64,000 nucleotides of DNA. Source: Candidatus Buchananbacteria bacterium. Lineage in GTDB: Bacteria; Patescibacteriota; Patescibacteriia; Buchananbacterales; UBA6539. Location: the NCBI GenBank assembly GCA_041664165.1, contig JBAYLH010000001.1, positions 73,469 through 137,468 on the forward strand, written 5' to 3'. Below are positions 1,040 through 31,443 of the stretch, piece after piece; the stretch's first letter is position 1; each line of letters starts with the position of its first letter. A program made the position numbers and the translations under genes. Under the pieces are notes generated by a model, which saw nothing but the letters and a program-made list of their open reading frames with translations, searched no databases and was not told the origin of the DNA.

Positions 1040-3148
1040 TTATTTTCTAACTTTTGTATCTTTGGTTTTTATCTGTTCGGCAACGTTATTAGGCACCTCG
1101 GCATAATGGTCAAATTCCATATTGTAGGAAGCGCGGCCTTGAGTCATTGACCGGATTTCCGTGGCATAACCGAACATTTCGGCTAACGGCACTTGGGCGT
1201 CAATTACTTTCGTTTGTCCCCGATCCCGCATTTCGTCAATTTGACCGCGTTTGGAATTAATATTACCAATAATATCGCCCATATATTGTTCCGGAGTAAT
1301 CACTTCAACTCTCATAATCGGCTCAAGTAAAATCGGACTGGCGCGCCTGGCCGCTTCCTGAAAAGCCATCGAACCGGCAATTTTGAAAGCCGCTTCCGAA
1401 GAGTCAACTTCATGAAAAGACCCGTCGTAAACCGTGGCTTCAATGTCAATAATCGTATAACCGGCAACCACTCCCCTGTCCAACGCTTCTTTGATGCCTT
1501 TTTGAATCGCCGGGATATATTCTCTCGGGATCAGTCCGCCTTTAATTTCATCGTTAAAGACAAAGCCTTCGCCGCGAGCCCGAGGCGCCACTCTAATCCA
1601 GCAATGGCCGTATTGGCCGCGGCCGCCGGACTGCCGGATGTATTTGCCTTCGGCTTCAGCCGTGCCTTTGATCGTTTCTTTGTAAGCCACTTGCGGCCGG
1701 CCGACATTGGCTTCCACTTTGAATTCCCGCTTCATTCTTTCGACTAAAACTTCCAAATGAAGTTCGCCCATACCGGCAATAATCGTCTGCATGGTTTCTT
1801 CGTCGCCGTGAACTTTAAAGGTCGGGTCTTCTTCGGCCAATTTAGCCAAAGCCATACCCATTTTTTCCTGGTCGGCTTTGGTTTTCGGCTCAATCGCCAC
1901 AGAAATAACCGTTTCCGGAAAGACAATTGATTCCAAAACAATCGGATGATTTTCGTCGCATAAAGTATGGCCGGTAAAGGTACTTTTTAAACCGACGGCG
2001 GCGGCGATTTCGCCGGCAAAGACTTCTTTGACTTCTTCCCGGTGATTGGCGTGCATCCTAACGATTCGGCCGATTCTTTCTTTGTTGCCGTTTGAAGAGT
2101 TTATAATATACGAACCGGCGCTTAAAGTACCGGCATAAACGCGAAAAAAACAAAGTTTGCCGACAAACGGATCGGCGGCGATTTTAAAAGCTAAAGCGGT
2201 AAAAGGCTGGTCATCGGCCGCTGAACGAACTTCTTCGGTTTCTTTATTTTTGGGATGAAAACCTTTAACCGGCGGGATGTCTAACGGGCTGGGCAAAAAA
2301 TCGCAGACCGCGTCCAAAAGATATTGAACGCCTTTATTTTTCAAAGCGGAACCGCACAAAACCGGCATAATTTCGTTATTGATCGTCGCTTTTCTCAAAA
2401 CTTTTTTCAAATCGGCTAAAGCAATCGCCTCGCCGTTTAAATATTTGTTTAATAAATTTTCATCATGCTGGACAATGGCTTCGATTAATTCATGGCGGTA
2501 TTTTTCCGCCAACTCTTTCAAATCTGCCGGAATTTCCGATTCTTCCATGTCTTTGCCCAAATCGTCTTTGTAAATAAAGGCTTTTTCGACCAACAAATCA
2601 ACAATGCCACTGAAGCCGCCTTCAGTGCCGATCGGCAGCTGAATCGGATAAGCGTTTTTGGTTAGCCTTTCTCTAATACTATCTAGATCACTGTAGAAAT
2701 CGGCACCGGTGCGGTCGAGTTTATTAATAAAACCAAGCAATGGCACCCGAAATTTTTCCGCCTGGTGATAAACGGTTTCGGACTGCGGCTCAACGCCGGC
2801 CACGCCATCAAAAACCACTACCCCGCCGTCCAAAACCCGCAACGAACGCTGAACTTCGGCGGTAAAATCAATATGACCGGGAGTATCGATTAAATTGAGC
2901 CGGCAGGCATTTTCTTCTTCGCCTCGTGGCGCCCAAAAACAGGTCGTCGCGGCGGAAGTAATCGTAATGCCTCTTTCCCGTTCCTGCTCCATCCAGTCCA
3001 TTTCGGCTTCGCCTTCGTGAACTTCGCCGATTTTATGTTTTTTGCCGGTATAAAACAAAATTCGCTCAGATACAGTGGTTTTTCCCGCGTCAATGTGAGC
3101 GATAATTCCGATATTTCTAGTTTTTTCTAAAGAAGATTCTCTTGGCAT
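1040..3148 (-). CDS. fusA: Elongation factor G
   Basis: 702 aa. [10 protein letters not shown]-loop, DTPGHIDF, and the full EF-G domain order are present. Confidence 0.95.
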
Positions 3149-3287
3149 AAAAAATTTAAATTCTAATTTCTAATTTCAAAATTCGAAATAAATTACAAAC
3201 TATAAATTCTAATTTTCCAGATATTTTAAAATTTATAATTTAATAAATTGGAATTTGTTTAGAATTTCGAGTTTCGGGCTTCGAATT

Positions 3288-3752
3288 TTATCTAATGAAA
3301 TGCGCAAAAGCCCGGTTGGCTTCGGCCATTTTGTAAGTATCTTGGCGTTTTTTAATCGCTGCCCCTTCCCGGTTATAAGCGGCCATGAATTCTTCCGCTA
3401 ATTTTTGGCTCATCGGCATGCCTTTTTTCGCCTTGGCCGCGGTGATAATCCAGCGATAAGCTAAGGCTTTCCGGCGAGAGGGAGGCACCGGCACGGGAAT
3501 TTGATAATTACCGCCGCCGATTCTTTTTGATCTGACTTCGACTTCCGGACCAACGTTTTTAATCGCTCCGTCAAAAATTTCTAACGGGTCTTTATTGGTT
3601 TTTTCTTTAATAAAATCAAAGCAATCATAAACTATGCGCTGGGCAGTGGCTTTTTTGCCCCGTTCCATGATTTGGGTGATAAATTTAGCAATATTAACGC
3701 TTTGATATCTAGGATCAGGGATAATTTCTCGTTTTGGAGTCTTGCCTCGCAT
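3288..3752 (-). CDS. rpsG: 30S ribosomal protein S7
   Basis: 154 aa with typical S7 sequence and the expected str-operon position. Confidence 0.95.
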   Translation of the reverse strand: MRGKTPKREIIPDPRYQSVNIAKFITQIMERGKKATAQRIVYDCFDFIKEKTNKDPLEIFDGAIKNVGPEVEVRSKRIGGGNYQIPVPVPPSRRKALAYRWIITAAKAKKGMPMSQKLAEEFMAAYNREGAAIKKRQDTYKMAEANRAFAHFIR

Positions 3753-3769
3753 AATAAGTAGTATTAAAA

Positions 3770-4201
3770 TTATTTCGATTTAGCTTCAGTACCCGTTTTT
3801 GAGCCGTATAAGCTCCGGCCCTGCCGGCGGCCATCAACGCCGACGGTATCATAAACCCCGCGGACAATGTGATACCGGACGCCAGGCAAATCTTTAACCC
3901 GGCCGCCGCGGATCAAAACCACGGAGTGTTCCTGCAGATTATGGCCTTCGCCCGGAATATAGGCGGTTACTTCCATGCCGTTTGATAGCCGAACCCTGGC
4001 AATTTTTCTTAAAGCCGAGTTAGGCTTTTTTGGCGTCATGGTCGTAACTTTAACGCAAACGCCCCGCTTAAAACCGGCACCTTTGGCTAATTCCCGTTTT
4101 TTCCGGCGCAAAGTATTAGAAACCAGCATCAGAGCCGGTGTCTTTGATTTTTTCTTCTGCGATTTGCGCTTTCGCTTGATTAATTGATTGATTGTTGGCA
4201 T
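3770..4201 (-). CDS. rpsL: 30S ribosomal protein S12
   Basis: 143 aa, with the characteristic [10 protein letters not shown] and VRLSNG motifs. Confidence 0.95.
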
Positions 4202-4292
4202 TTTCCTGTTTTCAAGTCTTAAAAACCTGCCTTTAAGGCAGTTAACATAGAGATATCCTAACGAATAATCAAAAAGAAGTCAAGAGATTGGT

Positions 4293-22186: not shown

Positions 22187-23053
22187 TTATTGATTTTCTT
22201 CTGTCTCTAACTCACTCTTCAATGCAATGGCTTCCTTTGCTTGCTTTAGACGATCGGGAAAAACACAATAACCGGTTACTGAAAATAATTTATCGGCTTT
22301 TTCTGCCCGATTTTGCCTGACTAAAACTACATAATTAGGAATATTAGTCCCATAAACGGTTCCATCATGGCGAGAGTCTTTAATCCATTCGCTATCTTGA
22401 CCGGCAATCTCGTCGCTATGTATTCTTCCTTTACGGAGACTGACATTTTGAAAATAGGCCTGATAATCAGGATCTTGAGGACTTAATTCTTGTTCTGCTC
22501 CGACTGCTGATTTAAGCAACTCAACATCTCTTTCTTCTAACCCTGACAAGACGTGAAAATCGATGGCAGCATTACCGCCAACATCCCCGACCACTTTATT
22601 TCTAAGATGAAGATTTCTATCCTGTTTTAATTCTTCAGGAGTTAAGACTTTTTCTGTATGTTCGCCCCGGACTATTTTGCCGCCTCTGACTTGAACTTCC
22701 AAAAAACCAGGATGATAGCGAGAATCAAGTTTCATTCCAGGATCTTTTACCAACCGGTTTGCCATTTCTACGCCAACCGCTGATAAAGTCAGCCAATCAG
22801 CAATTTTTTTAATACTATCGCGATTGGAACGCATCTCCGTTAAAACGCTGGAACATCCTTCTGGATTAAAACCGCCTTGATCGCCGGTTATTGATTGCTG
22901 TTTTTTTTCAATTTCTTGCCATAAAGCACGCCGCCGTTTCTGATCATCGGGCGACCAATCTCCCAAATTTTCTTCAATTTTTTTTAGGATACCCCGAGAA
23001 CTGCTCTCATCTTGTTCTGGGTCTTGAATTACTTCCGGACTCAGTTTTCGCAT
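22187..23053 (-). CDS. Hypothetical protein (288 aa, charged)
   Basis: Long ORF with native AT-rich codon usage. No family recognised. Confidence 0.5.
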   Translation of the reverse strand: MRKLSPEVIQDPEQDESSSRGILKKIEENLGDWSPDDQKRRRALWQEIEKKQQSITGDQGGFNPEGCSSVLTEMRSNRDSIKKIADWLTLSAVGVEMANRLVKDPGMKLDSRYHPGFLEVQVRGGKIVRGEHTEKVLTPEELKQDRNLHLRNKVVGDVGGNAAIDFHVLSGLEERDVELLKSAVGAEQELSPQDPDYQAYFQNVSLRKGRIHSDEIAGQDSEWIKDSRHDGTVYGTNIPNYVVLVRQNRAEKADKLFSVTGYCVFPDRLKQAKEAIALKSELETEENQ

Positions 23054-23133: not shown

Positions 23134-23178
23134 AAAAAAACCAGCCCCGCCGCTCACAAGCGGCGGGGCTGGTTTGTA
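23134..23178 (-). terminator. Terminator after glnA
   Basis: 13-bp GC-rich stem CCAGCCCCGCCGC/GCGGCGGGGCTGG followed by U7 in minus sense. Confidence 0.8.
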
Positions 23179-23187
23179 TTCTCGATA

Positions 23188-24513
23188 TTACAAATCTAAA
23201 TATCTTTTTAGTTCTCTAGGCGTTACCTCCGTTTTTTGCTCTTCAATTTCAATTTGTTTAGCGCTGATAAATCTATCTAGGGTATGTTGAGTAATAGCGC
23301 CCTTAACCACTTCATCTTTATTTAATTCACTAATCGCTTCTGGCAGTGAACCCGGCAAACTGGATATTTTTAGCTCTTGCTTTCTGTTATCATCTAAATG
23401 ATAAATATCTTCCTCGATGGCCGGCGATAACGGCATATCTTTTTCAATGGCATCGAGTCCCGCCGCCAAGATCGCGGCAAAGGCCAAATAAGGATTGCAC
23501 GACGGATCTGGGGATCGGAGTTCGACTCTGGTTGATTGCTCACGGCCCGGCGTAAACCGCGGAATTCGGATCAGTGCTGACCGATTCATTTGAGCCCAGC
23601 AGATATTGACCGGGGCTTCATAGCCAGGTATCAGTCTCTTAAAAGAATTAGTAGTCGGATTGGTCAAGGCAGTAAAACCTCGGCTATGATGCAGTAAACC
23701 AGCAATAAACTGATAAGCGATTTTTGACAGCTTATAGCCATTGTTGTCTTCATAAAACAAATTATTGCCTTTTAAATCAAACAGGCTTAAATGCACGTGC
23801 ATACCTGATCCGTTTATGCCACCAAATGGTTTTGGCATAAATGTCGCATTGATACCATAACTTTGGGCAATTGCTTTGATGGTAGTTTTTAGAGTTATGA
23901 TATTATCTGCCGTATTTAAGGCATCGGCATAACGAAAATCAATTTCATGCTGCCCTGCTGCAACTTCATGATGACCGGCCTCAATTTTTATATTTAATTC
24001 AGATGAAGCTTTGATTACATCCTCCCTGATTTTTGAGGCGACATCGAAAGGAGAAAAATCAAAATAGCCGCCATAATCATGGGGAACAGGTGCCATACTG
24101 CTATCTTTTTGCAAAAGAAAAAATTCCAGTTCTGCCCCAACGTTCAAAATCAATCCTTTATCTTCGGCTTTTTTCATCATCTGTTTTAAAATGTAACGCG
24201 GATCGCCGATGAATGGTTTTAAGTCTGGACCATAAACATCACAAATTATTCTAGCAGCTTTATTTTCTTTTAAACTCCAAGGCAAAGTGCAGTAAGTTTT
24301 TACATCTGGCATCAGTAGCTGATCACTTTCGGCAATTCTGGCAAACCCCTCAATCGAGGAACCGTCAAACCAGATGCCTTTTTCCAAAGCGCCGGACAAT
24401 TGTTCGGTTGGGATTACAACATCTTTGGGTATACCCAAGATGTCGGTAAACTGCAGATGAATGTACTTAACGTTATCTTTATTTACCTTTTCTAAAAGTG
24501 TTTCTTTGCTCAT
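23188..24513 (-). CDS. glnA: Glutamine synthetase type I (ATG at 24513 preferred over the track's upstream TTG at 24543)
   Basis: GS catalytic motifs (GINGSGMHVHLSLFD, NPYLAFAAILAAGLDA). The real start is judged to be MSKETLLEKV. Confidence 0.9.
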   Translation of the reverse strand: MSKETLLEKVNKDNVKYIHLQFTDILGIPKDVVIPTEQLSGALEKGIWFDGSSIEGFARIAESDQLLMPDVKTYCTLPWSLKENKAARIICDVYGPDLKPFIGDPRYILKQMMKKAEDKGLILNVGAELEFFLLQKDSSMAPVPHDYGGYFDFSPFDVASKIREDVIKASSELNIKIEAGHHEVAAGQHEIDFRYADALNTADNIITLKTTIKAIAQSYGINATFMPKPFGGINGSGMHVHLSLFDLKGNNLFYEDNNGYKLSKIAYQFIAGLLHHSRGFTALTNPTTNSFKRLIPGYEAPVNICWAQMNRSALIRIPRFTPGREQSTRVELRSPDPSCNPYLAFAAILAAGLDAIEKDMPLSPAIEEDIYHLDDNRKQELKISSLPGSLPEAISELNKDEVVKGAITQHTLDRFISAKQIEIEEQKTEVTPRELKRYLDL

Positions 24514-24544
24514 AGTTAATTTTTTTGTTAAGTTTAAAATCAAA

Positions 24545-24607
24545 CAAAAAAGGCGTCAAAAATTATTTTGGACGTCTTTGTCGAGTCTTTTTAGTACGCC
24601 TTTGTAC
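24545..24607 (-). promoter_or_regulatory. Candidate ANTAR-target dual hairpin plus terminator in the glnA leader
   Basis: Minus sense has GUAC-AAAGGC-GUAC and GAC-AAAGAC-GUC (hexaloops with A1 and G4) 11 nt apart. A GACGCC U7 tract follows, with GGCGU available upstream for a terminator stem. Confidence 0.45.
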
Positions 24608-24652
24608 TAATCATAGTGTAGCACAAACCAAAAAAAAGTCAACTGTGGATAT

Positions 24653-25360
24653 TTAAGCCATAACATCCTGGGCTAAAATAATGGCTTCGGCTACTTCTTT
24701 GAGCGATTTTCGTTTATCCATGCTCTTTTTAACCAAAAGCCGATGAGCCTCTTGCTCGGTTAAGCCGCCGGCTTTAATCAAAATTGCTTTAGCCTTATTG
24801 ATAATTTTTTGGGTTTCCAACGCTTCTTTCAAAACATTAGTTTCGGAAATCAGTCGAGACACTTCCAAAATTCCGCCAATTTGTTTGGCAATCGTTTCTA
24901 AAAAATTAATTTCTTTTCTTGGATATCTTTTTGATTTTTTATGCTGAACATTAATTACGCCGATGACATGATTACGAAAAATTATCGGCACCGATAAAAA
25001 CCCTTCAAATTTGTCTTCCGGCAAACTGGAAAAAAGCTTAAAGCGCTTATCTTCATAAGCTTTTTTGGAAATGGCGACTGACTTTTTCGTTTCCGCTACC
25101 CAGCCGGTAATGCCTTCGCCGACTTTCATTTTAACTCGGGAGAGATTAGAGTGATGGGGATTTTGGGACGCTTTCAAAATTACCTCTTCGCCGGAAATCA
25201 AATAAATGAAGCAGGAATCAGCTTTGGTAATTTTGCCGATAATTTTAGCGATGTTATCCAAAATTTCCCGCAAATCAAAGTTGTTGCTGGCGGTTTCAAT
25301 AATTTCCTGCAAAATCAATAAATTATTTTTGACGTCTAAATTTTGATTTTTGGTGGCCAT
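24653..25360 (-). CDS. GAF-ANTAR RNA-binding antitermination regulator
   Basis: An N-terminal GAF-like domain, and a C-terminal ANTAR helix region LTEQEAHRLLVKKSMDKRKSLKEVAEAII. Confidence 0.75.
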   Translation of the reverse strand: MATKNQNLDVKNNLLILQEIIETASNNFDLREILDNIAKIIGKITKADSCFIYLISGEEVILKASQNPHHSNLSRVKMKVGEGITGWVAETKKSVAISKKAYEDKRFKLFSSLPEDKFEGFLSVPIIFRNHVIGVINVQHKKSKRYPRKEINFLETIAKQIGGILEVSRLISETNVLKEALETQKIINKAKAILIKAGGLTEQEAHRLLVKKSMDKRKSLKEVAEAIILAQDVMA

Positions 25361-25362
25361 AA

Positions 25363-26283
25363 TTATTTTCCCTTAAACCAATCGGCGGTCTTTTTAATCC
25401 CCTCTTCTAACTTAACTTCCGGCTGCCAACCTAACTCTTTTTTAATTTTGCCAGAGTCAAGACAGCTTCTTTGCTGTTCAACGGCTTTGGCCTCGCCGTG
25501 GGTAAATTCTAAGTCCGTTTTAAAATTACCTTTGATTAAATCAGCCAATTGATTAACATCGGTTTCAATGCCGGTACCGACATTATAGATGACATTACTA
25601 GCTTTATCTAAAGCAAGCAGATTGGCCCAAACCACATCGCTGACATAAGTATAATCCCGGGTTTGTTTGCCGTCGCCGTTAATTACTGGCACTTGACCAG
25701 CCAATAATTTATCACAAAAAATTGCCACCACCCCGGCTTCGCCTTTGGCATTTTGCCGCGGACCATAGACATTGGCATAGCGTAAAATTACATAAGCCAA
25801 GCCAAAAATTTCTTGGTAATAATATAAATATTTCTCAATGGCTAGTTTCGCAATGCCATAAGGCGAAAGCGGCTGTTCGGCGTGATTTTCTTTAGTCGGG
25901 ATATCGGTTGTATCGCCATAAATTGCCCCGCCGGTTGAAGCAAAGATAAATTTTTTAACCCCAAAATTTTTGCAGTTTTCTAAAAGATTAAGCGAACCCA
26001 AGATGTTTTGGTTGGCATCCCAAACCGGATTTTCCGCCGATTTGCGAACATCAATTTGGGCGGCAAAATGAAAAACTACTTCCGGTTTTTCAATCGCAAA
26101 AATATCAGCCAATTTTTGATCGGTAATATCTAAATTAAAAAATTTAGCTTGGGGGTTTAAATTTTCTTTAAATCCAGTCGCCAGATTATCAATTACTAAA
26201 ACTTCATGATTTTTGGCAATCAAGGCATCAGTAAGATTACTCCCGATAAACCCGGCACCACCTGTTACCAAAATTTTACTCAT
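25363..26283 (-). CDS. NAD-dependent epimerase/dehydratase (UDP-glucose 4-epimerase-like)
   Basis: [17 protein letters not shown] Rossmann motif and the YxxxK region. Confidence 0.85.
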   Translation of the reverse strand: MSKILVTGGAGFIGSNLTDALIAKNHEVLVIDNLATGFKENLNPQAKFFNLDITDQKLADIFAIEKPEVVFHFAAQIDVRKSAENPVWDANQNILGSLNLLENCKNFGVKKFIFASTGGAIYGDTTDIPTKENHAEQPLSPYGIAKLAIEKYLYYYQEIFGLAYVILRYANVYGPRQNAKGEAGVVAIFCDKLLAGQVPVINGDGKQTRDYTYVSDVVWANLLALDKASNVIYNVGTGIETDVNQLADLIKGNFKTDLEFTHGEAKAVEQQRSCLDSGKIKKELGWQPEVKLEEGIKKTADWFKGK

Positions 26284-29847: not shown

Positions 29848-31443
29848 TTACAAACCCTTGTCTGTATTGATGTCGGGTGAACTGTTTTTAATTGAATCTT
29901 TGCTATACTCGGTAACGGCCGTAATTTGGCTGCCGGTTTTATAGTTAACAAAGAAAGCATCGGAAATATCATCTACTAAGGTAGTCGCCCAGCTGGCGCC
30001 GTAAAGAGCAGCGGCGATGTCAGCGGTGGTAACCCATCTCAAAGTGCCATCACCGGCAACGGCGTAAACTTTCGGATCCGTGTTGATTTTAACTAATTTT
30101 ACACCGGGCCGATAAGTCGCGTTGCCACCAATCAGGTACTTGGCTAAATCAGCGGCGCTAATGGTTTTAACGGTGGAAAAATCGCTATACCAAGTCTTGT
30201 AAGTTTTTTCATTCGGAAAAACATAGCGTTTGCCATCTTGGCCAAGATAATAGACTGCCTTGCAGGGATCATTAACACCAGCGTTGGCAGCACAAGCTAA
30301 CTTGACTAAATCGCCGCCGGCCGCAATTTTTTCGCCAATGACCGCAAACTTAGTGAAATGAGCGGTTGTAGCCGTGATTTTATTGCCAGCGGAGTCAATA
30401 GTACCGCCCAAACTGAGCCATTTCTTGGTCGCTTCGTCCCAATAGTTGACCGCTAAAGTCGATTCATTAATCCCTTTAATATTTTCGTCGGAGTAGGTAA
30501 AAGTCAAAGTCAACAACTTGTCAAAGGTGGTTATTGCCTGTCCGCCGACCGTGGCCGAAAAGTCATAAACTTGATTGCCAACCACTCCTTTGGCGCTTTC
30601 CGGAGCAGTATAACTGGCAGTTGGCGTAATCGTTATTTCCCCGCTGCCGCTGAAAGCGCCGCTTGGGATTGTAATCGCCGCTTTATTATCCGTTAAAGAA
30701 ACTAAACCCCCTTCGGTGCCGGTAATGGCTTTGGTAATCTTAGCTGCCGGCGCGATTAATTCGATGGTGTCGCTAACCGCTGCCGATTCACCGCCGCCGG
30801 TTGACCGAAACTTAACATAGACAGTCTTAACGCCCAAGCCGGAGACTAAAGTCCAGCTGGCTGAAGTTGCATAATTTTGCCAGCTGCCGGCATCGGAAAA
30901 ATCAGCTTTATTGGCAATTAACATAGTAGCGGCGTTTGTCGCTGATAAAGTAAGCGTGATACCGGTACTTTCCGTCTGAATGTTGCCGCTATCAATTGCT
31001 ACCGCAGCATTGGTAGGCGTAACTACTACCGGTGCCGCACCGCCGCCACCTCCACCGCCGCCACCGCTGCCCGGAGCACTACACTTGTCGCCGCTAATAG
31101 TTAAAGTAACATCTTGACTTGATCCCGAAGTTATACTGATTGACGAAGCCGTGCCGGAACAGCCATCTTGGGCAATTTCCGGTGAAACTTTCATTCGCCA
31201 GCCGTCGGCTGCTTGAAAGGTAATATTTGAATCACTGGCCAAACTAATAGTCAAAGTGGAATCTGCATTAATAATAATTGACTCGGCTAAACTGTCGTTG
31301 GTAATCGTTAAATTTTTACCATTAGGCAGTAAAAGATTAGTTTCGGCATTAAACGTCAGTGTCGCCGCGGCAGCCAAACCTGGGATGCCGACAGCAAGAG
31401 AAAATATTACCAACCCGACTCCTATAAAAAATATTTTCCGCAT
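29848..31443 (-). CDS. Secreted cell-surface protein with Gly-rich linker
   Basis: Signal peptide, a GSGGGGGGGGGAAP linker, and Thr/Ser-rich beta-rich segments. Confidence 0.6.
   Translation of the reverse strand: MRKIFFIGVGLVIFSLAVGIPGLAAAATLTFNAETNLLLPNGKNLTITNDSLAESIIINADSTLTISLASDSNITFQAADGWRMKVSPEIAQDGCSGTASSISITSGSSQDVTLTISGDKCSAPGSGGGGGGGGGAAPVVVTPTNAAVAIDSGNIQTESTGITLTLSATNAATMLIANKADFSDAGSWQNYATSASWTLVSGLGVKTVYVKFRSTGGGESAAVSDTIELIAPAAKITKAITGTEGGLVSLTDNKAAITIPSGAFSGSGEITITPTASYTAPESAKGVVGNQVYDFSATVGGQAITTFDKLLTLTFTYSDENIKGINESTLAVNYWDEATKKWLSLGGTIDSAGNKITATTAHFTKFAVIGEKIAAGGDLVKLACAANAGVNDPCKAVYYLGQDGKRYVFPNEKTYKTWYSDFSTVKTISAADLAKYLIGGNATYRPGVKLVKINTDPKVYAVAGDGTLRWVTTADIAAALYGASWATTLVDDISDAFFVNYKTGSQITAVTEYSKDSIKNSSPDINTDKGL

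Follow-up and report, generated by a model that had tools for sequence, protein, structure and literature searches.

The RNA element described here resembles the dual-hexaloop leaders recognized by ANTAR proteins. Ramesh et al. 2012 (PMC3369931) defined this class, and their list of matches already included sites ahead of genes for glutamine and glutamate synthase, PII and ammonium transporters. In eut leaders the two hairpins are separated by a linker of 5-12 nt, and function suffers with linkers of 3 nt or 14 nt or after an extension by 20 nt (PMC3369931). Regulators of the EutV type are phosphorylated response regulators. NasR, which acts on nasF in Klebsiella oxytoca, and NasT regulate nitrate assimilation as ANTAR proteins that are either one-component or controlled by NasS. 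ANTAR antitermination of nitrogen-assimilation or nitrogen-fixation genes with leader terminators (nifH, glnK, amtB and, in clostridia, the glnA region) is known for the kinase-driven response regulators GnfR, paired with GnfK in Geobacter sulfurreducens (PMC2995071), and NitR of Clostridium (mentioned in PMC4676874). The combination of a GAF and an ANTAR domain is given in reviews up to 2025 only as an uncharacterised one, and nothing specific was found in the literature on ANTAR proteins of Patescibacteria or on characterised GAF-ANTAR proteins.

The locus analysed lies in a stretch of 64,000 nt (the window) from an uncultured Patescibacteria genome assembled from a metagenome (MAG), a group outside the coverage of Ramesh 2012. 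Here a GAF-ANTAR gene precedes glnA, and the leader between them, as in the EutV/eut system of Enterococcus faecalis, contains two short stem-loops with A1/G4 hexaloops, a linker of approximately 10 nt and an intrinsic terminator that includes nucleotides of the second stem-loop, with the gene of an ANTAR protein nearby. Unlike EutV, the regulator is a one-component protein. The logic of one polypeptide carrying a sensor and an ANTAR domain, and the theme of nitrogen assimilation, are shared with NasR and NasT, but here a GAF domain takes the place of the NIT sensor, and glnA that of the nitrate/nitrite target genes. With GnfR and NitR the locus has in common the control of nitrogen genes through leader terminators, the difference being that a single protein with its own sensor is encoded directly before its target. 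The leader is most likely an ANTAR-type transcription attenuator run by the adjacent upstream GAF-ANTAR protein, a reading drawn from the domains, the features of the RNA, the comparison with other genomes, a covariance model that had not seen the locus, the logic of the regulon and the type of the GAF domain.

The regulator, the leader and glnA

The features of the locus are collected in table 1. The initial annotation, made from the sequence of the window, had placed a GAF-ANTAR regulator immediately upstream of glnA with a region of 139 nt between the two genes, and both statements were borne out: the open reading frame carries both Pfam domains well over their cut-offs, and the spacer has the length given. 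The regulator start codon lies 2 nt behind the stop codon of an epimerase gene situated upstream, and an identical protein is found in a Patescibacteria MAG, where it is annotated as 'GAF and ANTAR domain-containing protein'.

Table 1. Features of the regulator-glnA locus, in window coordinates.
Feature	Position	Strand	Description	Basis
GAF-ANTAR one-component regulator	24653..25360	-	235 aa	Pfam GAF_2 2e-19, ANTAR 3.2e-19
Regulator domains			GAF ~residues 29-166; helical linker ~167-176; ANTAR 177-228	
glnA leader	24652..24514	-	intergenic, 139 nt	sequence reading
Putative sigma-70-type promoter	24615..24642	-	TTGACT, 16 nt, TG-n-TACACT	consensus scan only
Hairpin P1	24591..24610	-	UUAGUAC-AAAGGC-GUACUAA, C-G closing pair	reading and fold
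Hairpin P2	24571..24582	-	GAC-AAAGAC-GUC, 3 bp	direct reading
Leader terminator	24542..24579	-	AAAGACGUC-C-AAAA-UAAU-UUUU-GACGCC-UUU; U6 run 24551..24546, then GUUUG	folds, base-pair probabilities
glnA (proposed regulated gene)	23188..24513	-	type I glutamine synthetase, 441 aa	Pfam Gln-synt_C 3e-125, Gln-synt_N 6e-28
Strong intrinsic terminator after glnA	23134..23170	-	AGCCCCGCCGC-UUGUGA-GCGGCGGGGCU, GG, U7	sequence; partly found by terminator scan

The C-terminal part of the regulator scores 68.9 bits against Pfam PF03861 (cut-off 27.3), a three-helix ANTAR domain above the family threshold, and can be aligned with EutV, Rv1626, NasR and AmiR. When compared with the ten RNA-contact residues of EutV, as identified along with the structure of an ANTAR-RNA complex (PMC8934654), five are identical (K143, K147, E160, M172 and R175, retained as K185, K189, E202, M214 and R217), and two more are exchanged as in other ANTAR proteins of solved structure (Y164 for H206, as in AmiR, and N173 for D, as in NasR and Rv1626). 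The remaining three, R142, R168 and R177, are not kept and correspond to Q184, V210 and S219. Among 16 relatives of the regulator E202, M214 and R217 are invariant.

The glnA product scores 514.3 bits against NCBIfam TIGR00653 (cut-off 429.15), which assigns it to the type I glutamine synthetases (GS). Its start codon is the ATG at 24513; a longer form beginning with the TTG at 24543 finds no support in the homologues, whose alignments begin with the first residue of the protein read from the ATG. The strong intrinsic terminator behind the gene makes glnA a single-gene unit.

Within the leader, the promoter candidate matches 9 of the 12 consensus positions and has the TG of an extended -10 element, with a predicted transcription start a few nucleotides ahead of P1. 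Comparable -35/-10 pairs are found just upstream of P1 in six related leaders (L001-L005 and L018). The two hairpins of the initial annotation, GUAC-AAAGGC-GUAC at 24607..24594 and GAC-AAAGAC-GUC at 24582..24571, are present and 11 nt apart as described, but the 4-bp stem given for the first was too short: P1 really has 6-7 bp (UUAGUAC/GUACUAA, 24610..24591). With these 6-7 bp, and with 3 bp in P2, both stems reach the length of at least 3 bp that characterizes ANTAR targets, both hexaloops have A at position 1 and G at position 4 (AAAGGC in P1, AAAGAC in P2), and the linker is short as in the known class, at 8-10 nt depending on the number of P1 pairs counted.

The 5' arm of the leader terminator is formed by the loop and the 3' arm of P2, and an alternative 5' arm, AAGGCGU, is present in P1 (24602..24596). 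In the computed ensemble, GACGCC is paired with the P2 loop and 3' arm (ACGUC) at approximately 78% and with GGCGU of P1 at approximately 22%. Of the terminator first proposed, GGCGU...GACGCC followed by U7, the GACGCC element with its U-run and the overlap with the hairpins stand; the run is U6 followed by G and UUU rather than U7, and the GGCGU of P1 is only the minor partner, the main one being P2, in keeping with the canonical ANTAR design. That the 3' arm of the terminator can also pair with P1, unlike in EutV/eut, is a consequence of the near identity of the two loops. The folds give -14.4 to -14.8 kcal/mol for the terminator states and -7.3 kcal/mol for P1 and P2 together, and this difference of approximately 7 kcal/mol indicates termination as the default outcome. 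By itself the terminator hairpin is weak (-6.6 kcal/mol) and imperfect, its stem containing a bulged C and an A-C mismatch, which explains why a simple terminator scan missed it. The terminator nevertheless overlaps P2 in silico, imperfect stem included, and the two structures are mutually exclusive.

Leaders in other genomes and tests against chance

The simplest objection to an attenuator is that the hairpins arose by chance and that an ordinary terminator does nothing else than end the transcript of the upstream regulator gene. Small AU-rich hairpins are indeed frequent where the GC content is 45%, and the loose form of the motif, which asks for ANNGNN hexaloops in two hairpins of at least 3 bp, shows no enrichment in the window: 36 pairs were counted, compared with 38 +/- 6 in dinucleotide shuffles; when a T-run after the pair is also demanded, the numbers are 6 and 8.3 +/- 2.9, again without enrichment. 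The loose motif was for this reason dropped as evidence, and the case rests on the comparison with other genomes. On the other side, the promoter-like site falls between the regulator stop codon and P1, so that the terminator would act on glnA transcripts too.

In approximately 21 loci of other genomes, mostly of Patescibacteria, P1, linker, P2 and terminator stand in the same order ahead of a GS gene, and this layout is kept with two kinds of GS (441 aa and approximately 465-470 aa). The conservation of the hairpins in orthologous glnA leaders and the linkage of the regulator with glnA, which had been put forward as checks of the initial annotation, were both found: P1 covaries, and the two genes are linked in most of the Patescibacteria relatives. 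Of 22 loci of relatives with at least 47% identity, 14 have a GS gene on the same strand within the 500 nt downstream. Four loci speak against the chance explanation (L006, L009, L010 and L066), because in these motif and terminator stay with glnA, although the regulator gene is not upstream of it. Nor are the orthologous leaders misassembled copies of one sequence: the identity between the regulators is 40-87%, and the leader stems are not the same. Acidobacterial relatives (L019-L059 and others), which have neither a GS gene nor the motif within 3.5 kb, are uninformative for the glnA-leader locus; one of them, the protein of Terriglobus roseus (L047), is a HemD-GAF-ANTAR fusion, and shorter proteins occur in others.

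The alignment of 25 leaders shows changes on both sides of four of the five P1 pairs, with 98% of the cells paired and an invariant C-G closing pair. The covariation score of P1 is 0.45, while shuffles give 0.12 and slid partners no more than 0.11. The latter control addresses the bias of the model-based realignment towards structure, which was used instead of the MAFFT alignment, where the 3' arm of P1 had been split in four leaders with short linkers. The GAC and GUC of P2 are invariant across the relatives, an invariance that comes partly from the procedure by which the sites were found and that yields no covariation either way; the pairing of P2 is supported by the logic of the design and by the known family rather than by covariation. 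As for the loops of the 24 related leaders, A1 is present in 23 for P1 and in 19 for P2, the rest having G, and G4 is present in all 24, which the search partly required. The linker has a median of 9.5 nt, with a range of 3-19 nt.

A covariance model was also built from 13 distant leaders, with the window and its close relatives left out. With this held-out model the glnA leader was the only significant match in 128 kb (23.8 bits, E approximately 0.004, the next match scoring 9.2). Taken together with the covariation of P1 and the placing of the motif, this result leaves the chance explanation largely refuted by comparative data, and very improbable. The full covariance model, run with filters off, likewise returned the glnA leader as the sole site in the window; a second target of the regulator was not found there, the next best match (12.7 bits) being at an internal position.

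The P1 sequence is free to differ between genomes while its pairing is kept, G-U pairs included, and this observation bears on a different reading of the inverted repeats, as DNA operators of a dimeric transcription factor, as part of a small-molecule riboswitch or as a leader-peptide attenuator. In its favour, P1 is a perfect palindrome in DNA, a mini-ORF of 7 codons (AUG AUU AGU ACA AAG GCG UAC UAA) runs over it and Rfam yields a weak match to Phe_leader. The operator was rejected, since the sequence varies with pairing retained and the G-U pairs work only in RNA of the glnA sense. Against a riboswitch, no Rfam family, glutamine riboswitches included, reaches threshold, and so small an element leaves no room for a ligand pocket. 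The peptide attenuator was rejected too, as the mini-ORF is not conserved in the sequences of relatives. What is left to this group of explanations is a practically negligible probability. At gathering level Rfam finds a single tRNA in the whole window, and neither the glutamine riboswitch nor other cis-regulatory families match the leader (24300..24900) at E values up to 10, with the matches to Phe_leader (17.6 bits, E 3), sRNA and miRNA families set aside as noise. The sole relevant sub-threshold lead is narK (RF03032; 22 bits against a gathering cut-off of 43.2, E 0.069 in a search of 601 nt), the alignment of which covers both hairpins. P2 is nearly identical to its counterpart, CGACAAAGACGUC in the narK consensus, and the glnA leader is not a member of that family.

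The terminators of the relatives are much stronger than that of the window: in 17 of the 24 folded leaders the same register is occupied by one with an energy between -10 and -22 kcal/mol, and wherever a terminator exists its 5' arm overlaps P2. These values weigh against an action of the bound protein on translation or mRNA stability instead of termination. Such an action would be in keeping with the weak terminator of the window, with three related leaders that have no clear separate terminator (L054, L063 and L071) and with the precedent of actinobacterial ANTAR targets, for which effects on translation or mRNA stability have been proposed and among which targets overlapping start sites are described (PMC8164766, bioRxiv 10.1101/660928). 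However, P2 ends 57 nt ahead of the glnA start codon and makes no contact with it, and the U6 tract directly follows the hairpin that overlaps P2, so that control at these later levels seems quite improbable.

The GAF domain and other candidate target genes

Among the solved structures, the best matches of the regulator GAF domain with a named function are the GAF domains of PtsP (3ci6, 1e-16; 3trc, 2e-12), and among the NCBIfam models it is the N-terminal 168 positions of PtsP (9e-23), with NifA next; the cut-off of that model applies to the full-length protein and is out of reach for a GAF domain alone, and the GAF domain of NifA matches too. Blocks common to the regulator and PtsP GAF domains are D-x-C-x-I-Y-L, EG-x-x-G-x-V, RF, E-E/D-x-F/Y, FL-x-VP and GV-I/L-x-VQ. 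PtsP (EI-Ntr) is therefore the closest characterised GAF type by sequence, although its output is a PEP-dependent phosphotransferase and that of the regulator an RNA-binding ANTAR domain. Glutamine binding has been reported for the PtsP GAF domain (PMC4848567), and no ligand-bound structure of a PtsP-type GAF domain was among the solved-structure matches to the regulator. By homology of domain type, glutamine and/or 2-oxoglutarate may tentatively be named as the ligand.

Motif and terminator are also found ahead of amtB (L012) and of glutamine-dependent nadE (L080 and L068) and, in one locus (L013), ahead of the regulator gene itself. In an RNA-first scan of metagenomes, for which a panel of genes was built, 31 of the 44 matches that bear a terminator precede a panel gene, compared with 7 of the 76 without terminator. 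The 31 genes belong to the glutamate synthase family (18), GS (4), glutamate dehydrogenase (GDH; 2), AmtB (2), FlpD-like proteins (2), class-II glutamine amidotransferase (1), PII (1) and NrtA-like proteins (1). A GAF-ANTAR gene lies directly upstream in 13 of the 44 terminator-bearing matches and 1.3 kb upstream in one more.

It is conceivable that another ANTAR protein encoded elsewhere, for example of the response-regulator type, serves the leader as a genuine ANTAR target, while the adjacent GAF-ANTAR protein controls something else or is a mere partner. The hexaloop signature is generic and recognised by ANTAR domains, the consensus is common to NasR-type systems (as seen in the sub-threshold narK match and in NrtA-like and porin contexts), and the contig measures at least 257 kb, of which the window covers 64 kb, so that further ANTAR genes are possible. 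Patescibacteria genomes, however, are small and contain few regulators. The GAF-ANTAR gene moreover stands directly upstream of the motif, in cis, in many lineages and with different targets (glnA, amtB, nadE and genes of the gltS family), and the motif ahead of the regulator gene itself in L013 points in the same direction. Control by a distant ANTAR protein is thus considered unlikely.

Proposed mechanism and its meaning

With the parts of the attenuator in place, mutually exclusive in silico and conserved among leaders, the antitermination of glnA by the adjacent GAF-ANTAR protein through a dual-hexaloop RNA competing with a terminator, as first suggested, is supported by all sequence-level features of ANTAR targets. 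Transcription would start at the promoter inside the 139-nt spacer, and in the nascent RNA P1 would form first, before the P2 segment is reached. Left to themselves, the loop and 3' arm of P2 (less often those of P1) would pair with GACGCC to give the terminator with its U6 tract, and most transcripts would stop ahead of glnA. The regulator in its RNA-binding form, presumably a dimer, would bind the leader RNA and hold both A..G.. hexaloop hairpins, so that the terminator could not form and RNA polymerase would read into glnA. The GAF domain would report the nitrogen status through glutamine and/or 2-oxoglutarate, and glnA would be read through when nitrogen is short; the nitrogen-responsive character is suggested by the target genes and the PtsP-like GAF domain.

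The mechanism as such is not new, since antitermination by ANTAR proteins was already established, as was its connection with nitrogen genes. The contribution of the locus is the clean, cis-linked pairing of an uncharacterised class of sensor, GAF-ANTAR, with a defined RNA target and a defined output gene, a pairing that is kept across Patescibacteria and has counterparts in other phyla that involve different nitrogen genes. The 24 leaders also represent a curated seed for annotating the attenuator in MAGs, for which Rfam at present has no family that reports it. A protein of 235 aa and an RNA of 70 nt would suffice to test both the signal perceived by GAF-ANTAR proteins and the control of nitrogen assimilation in streamlined candidate-phyla bacteria. 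As a broader proposal, put forward with somewhat less than even confidence, and which if true would supply the GAF-ANTAR architecture with its first target and its first class of ligand, short GAF-ANTAR proteins may be a widespread family of one-component nitrogen sensors that respond to glutamine and/or 2-oxoglutarate through a PtsP-like GAF domain and antiterminate glnA, amtB, nadE, gltS-type glutamate synthase and gdh genes, and in the reduced genomes of Patescibacteria they may be the main, perhaps the only, nitrogen regulator.

Locus and leader RNA of glnA

On the minus strand of the Buchananbacteria contig, a gene for a GAF-ANTAR protein (the regulator) is followed by a leader with two hexaloop hairpins (P1 and P2) and by glnA, encoding glutamine synthetase (GS). 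The regulator ORF matches GAF_2/GAF (2e-19) and ANTAR (3.2e-19, 68.9 bits versus a cut-off of 27.3) in Pfam; an identical protein is recorded in a Patescibacteria MAG, and the nearest relatives are from Candidatus Buchananbacteria. The glnA ORF contains both glutamine synthetase domains (Pfam) and is classified as type I glutamate-ammonia ligase (NCBIfam, 514 bits versus 429). The regulator gene starts 2 nt past the epimerase stop codon, and the two genes are probably co-transcribed; the regulator gene carries no ANTAR-target site of its own within the window, and transcripts reading through from it would meet the same glnA attenuator. A 288-aa ORF just past the glnA terminator (22187-23053, minus) has no match in Pfam or NCBIfam, and a 531-aa ORF (29848-31443, minus) begins with a signal-peptide-like sequence and contains 11 consecutive glycines.

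Features of the regulator-glnA locus
Feature	Coordinates	Strand	Remarks
NAD-dependent epimerase gene	26283..25363	-	upstream of regulator ORF
Regulator ORF	25360..24653	-	235 aa; starts 2 nt past epimerase stop codon
Spacer/leader	24652..24514	-	139 nt; between regulator and glnA ORFs
Promoter-like TTGACT, 16 nt, TG-n-TACACT	24642..24615	-	predicted
P1	24610..24591	-	UUAGUAC-AAAGGC-GUACUAA, read as RNA
P1-P2 linker		-	8-10 nt
P2	24582..24571	-	GAC-AAAGAC-GUC, read as RNA
Segment 3' of P2		-	13 nt; able to make small AAAA/UUUU stem
Terminator 3' arm GACGCC	24557..24552	-
U run UUUUUU	24551..24546	-	then GUUUG
glnA ORF	ATG 24513, end 23188	-	441 aa; GS
Strong terminator	23170..23134	-	3' of glnA

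The initial annotation, which proposed ANTAR antitermination of glnA, described the leader accurately overall, except that the U run has six residues rather than seven and P1 is longer than was given; the glnA start codon lies approximately 30 nt beyond GUUUG. Folding of the leader yields three ground states of almost the same energy (−14.8, −14.4 and −14.0 kcal/mol). GACGCC(UUU) is paired in each, either with AAAGACGUC, which spans the P2 loop and 3' arm (approx. 78% ensemble probability), or with AAAGGCGU, the corresponding part of P1 (approx. 22%). Formation of both P1 and P2 without the terminator is worth only −7.3 kcal/mol, so that the factor-free RNA should terminate, and a factor holding both of these hairpins would, on these calculated energies, prevent termination. 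The hexaloops are nearly identical (AAAGGC-G in P1, 24596-24602; AAAGAC-G in P2, 24571-24579, both minus), which makes GACGCCUUU, the one terminator 3' arm, complementary to both hairpins; by sequence reading, the same double match is found in two related loci (L002, L004) and is less clear in a third (L001). The terminator hairpin alone is modest (−6.6 kcal/mol, with one A-C mismatch and one bulged C), and it was absent from the output of a simple terminator scan.

Taken alone, the loose dual-hexaloop pattern from which the proposal started has little weight: counting hairpins with stems of 3 bp or more and ANNGNN hexaloops, the window has 36 pairs no more than 25 nt apart over its two strands, versus 38 ± 6 in dinucleotide shuffles, and those followed by a T-run number 6 versus 8.3 ± 2.9. 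No Rfam family reports the leader site. The best sub-threshold match is the narK RNA (22 bits versus 43.2), the consensus of which contains CGACAAAGACGUC, as the leader does, plus a CAACGGCG hairpin; the leader RNA is not a member of that family. At the level of sequence, it has the features by which the published ANTAR-target class is recognized: two stems, A1/G4 hexaloops, a short linker, a P2-overlapping terminator and an ANTAR gene beside it.

The GAF-ANTAR regulator

The ANTAR part of the regulator aligns without gaps to EutV, Rv1626, NasR and AmiR. EutV contacts the hexaloop RNA through ten residues (PMC8934654). Of these, K143, K147, E160, M172 and R175 are identical in the regulator (K185, K189, E202, M214 and R217), Y164 is replaced by H206, likewise in AmiR, N173 by D215, likewise in NasR and Rv1626, and R142 by Q184, an arginine in most relatives, while R168 and R177 are not conserved. 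E202, M214, D215 and R217 are invariant in a 16-protein alignment, and the EutV dimer coiled-coil helix aligns with regulator residues of about 170-190.

The GAF domain is nearest to an uncharacterized Geobacter GAF domain (3e0y, 1e-22), followed by those of PtsP/EI-Ntr (3ci6, 1e-16; 3trc, 2e-12); in NCBIfam, the top match is to the PtsP model, over its N-terminal part (9e-23), with NifA next (1e-11). The blocks invariant in the family (DSC-x-x-YL, EGITGWVA, RFK, LPED-x-x-E, LS-x-P and GVINVQ) coincide with conserved positions of the PtsP GAF alignment. The GAF domain of NifA responds to 2-oxoglutarate.

Conservation of the leader in other genomes

One genome for each species was scanned with an alignment of 16 relatives as the query, which returned 80 loci. 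In 22 of them the regulator is at least 47% identical; most of these come from Patescibacteria, one from a MAG that carries the label Anaerolineales, and several are unclassified or bear doubtful labels. The linkage of regulator and glnA, on which the proposal depended, recurs in 14 of the 22, where a co-directional GS gene begins no more than 500 nt downstream; one locus has GS immediately upstream and two have it farther off in the same locus, and GS also directly follows four more distant relatives (40-43% identity). Conservation of the hairpins was also borne out: about 21 GS leaders have the layout of the window: a hairpin of 5-8 bp with a C-G-closed hexaloop, a short linker, (A)GAC-NNNGNN-GUC(U) and a terminator the 5' arm of which starts inside P2. 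In 17 of 24 folded sites, the terminator has a predicted energy of about −10 to −22 kcal/mol. The element remains with glnA where the regulator sits elsewhere in the locus (L006, L009, L010, L066), and it is kept before two kinds of GS, of 441 aa (88-92% identical to that of the window) or approximately 465-470 aa (36-38%). On these comparisons, the regulatory cassette has survived replacement of the enzyme gene.

Orthologous regulators and the same leader motif accompany different GS types in L002, L003, L005, L007, L008 and L011 versus the window, L001 and L004. Three leaders (L063 4191-4260, L071 3788-3850, L054 about 4190-4290) have a U-rich run straight after P2 and no separate terminator hairpin, and L054 has a second hairpin (CAC/GUG stem) approximately 25 nt from the start codon; these leaders may act translationally, or P2 itself may be the terminator. 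In L016, two tandem GAF-ANTAR paralogues (2797-3444, 3501-4151) lie upstream of the glnA leader.

Built on 22 leaders, a covariance model yields a single site in the window, with 38.4 bits (next, 12.7; E-values of such home-made models are rough), and picks out 24 credible sites among the 80 loci. To avoid circularity, a second model was built from 13 distant leaders (regulators no more than 60% identical), leaving out the window and L001-L004; the glnA leader is still its top-scoring site in the window (23.8 bits, with a rough E of about 0.004; next, 9.2 bits). In P1, four of five pairs change on both sides with 98% of cells paired, in a model-based alignment that leans towards structure, and the covariation score is 0.45, whereas shuffles give 0.12 and sliding the partners gives no more than 0.11. 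The GAC/GUC of P2 never varies in the alignment and therefore gives no covariation signal, an invariance that is in part ascertainment since sites were first located by the GAC..GUC pattern.

Other nitrogen genes and the proposed mechanism

An RNA-first scan of metagenome contigs with the pattern CACAANGNNGTG-N4-25-GACAANGNNGTC gave 120 loci. With a T-run after the motif, 31 of 44 precede a panel gene (glutamate synthase family 18, GS 4, glutamate dehydrogenase 2, AmtB 2, FlpD-like 2, and class-II amidotransferase, PII and NrtA-like 1 each); with the T-run absent, only 7 of 76 do so. In 13 of the 44, the motif is directly preceded by a co-directional gene for a full-length GAF-ANTAR relative (28-87% identical); in one more (L088), such a gene lies 1.3 kb upstream. 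In an Uhrbacteria MAG (L012), motif and terminator precede amtB; in Nitrospirota (L080, L068), where the regulator has two GAF domains, they precede glutamine-dependent NAD synthetase; and in L013 (3167-3202) the motif, with a strong terminator, lies before the regulator gene itself, which suggests autoregulation. For ANTAR substrates in general, matches ahead of genes for PII, ammonium transporters and glutamate and glutamine synthases have been reported (Ramesh et al., PMC3369931, PMC3369936); the contexts found here agree with them and add the GAF-ANTAR subclass as a recurrent cis partner.

Nine metagenome contigs (L098, L119, L125, L126, L129, L130, L131, L139, L191) form a second recurrent cassette, GAF-ANTAR, leader and nitrogen gene, in which a full-length relative (28-31% identical) lies directly upstream of motif and terminator and a 520-570-aa glutamate-synthase-family gene follows. 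In Omnitrophota and Planctomycetota, relatives of approximately 410 aa with two GAF domains and ANTAR have hexaloop hairpins (e.g. GGGC-AAUGAU-GUCC) and two successive terminators downstream (L072 4673-5150, L052 2489-2916, L076 4724-5264, L078 2463-2900). These precede amtB in L072, L052 and L076; L072 has glnK past amtB and an AAUGUU hexaloop at the tip of the first terminator. Among acidobacterial loci, L047 of Terriglobus roseus DSM 18391 (2526-4196) encodes a 556-aa fusion of a uroporphyrinogen-III-synthase-like (HemD) part with GAF and ANTAR, and the other relatives are shorter. L027 and L046 share a single hairpin, GGACAC-AACGUC-GUGUCC, approximately 250 nt past the gene, and L058 a similar one, AGGCAC-GACGCC-GUGCCU, at approximately 150 nt. 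The amtB-glnK genes are approximately 1.2-1.5 kb downstream, with neither glnA linkage nor a dual motif nearby.

The analysis establishes the parts, their order, their predicted mutual exclusivity and their conservation. There is good support for a mechanism in which the adjacent GAF-ANTAR protein, as a dimer, would bind first P1 and next P2 as the leader is transcribed, blocking the terminator and allowing glnA transcription; further ANTAR genes or targets may lie in the genome beyond the 64 kb of the window. Domain-level homology points to the GAF domain as a possible reporter of nitrogen status, via glutamine and/or 2-oxoglutarate, so that read-through would rise under nitrogen limitation. 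The GAF-ANTAR architecture is named only as an uncharacterized combination in papers from 2012 to 2025 (PMC3369931, PMC7496416, PMC12591593, bioRxiv 10.1101/660928), and our literature search found no paper tying ANTAR to Patescibacteria. The mechanism is ordinary for ANTAR systems; the new elements are the class of sensor, the clade and how very cleanly regulator and target are paired in cis.
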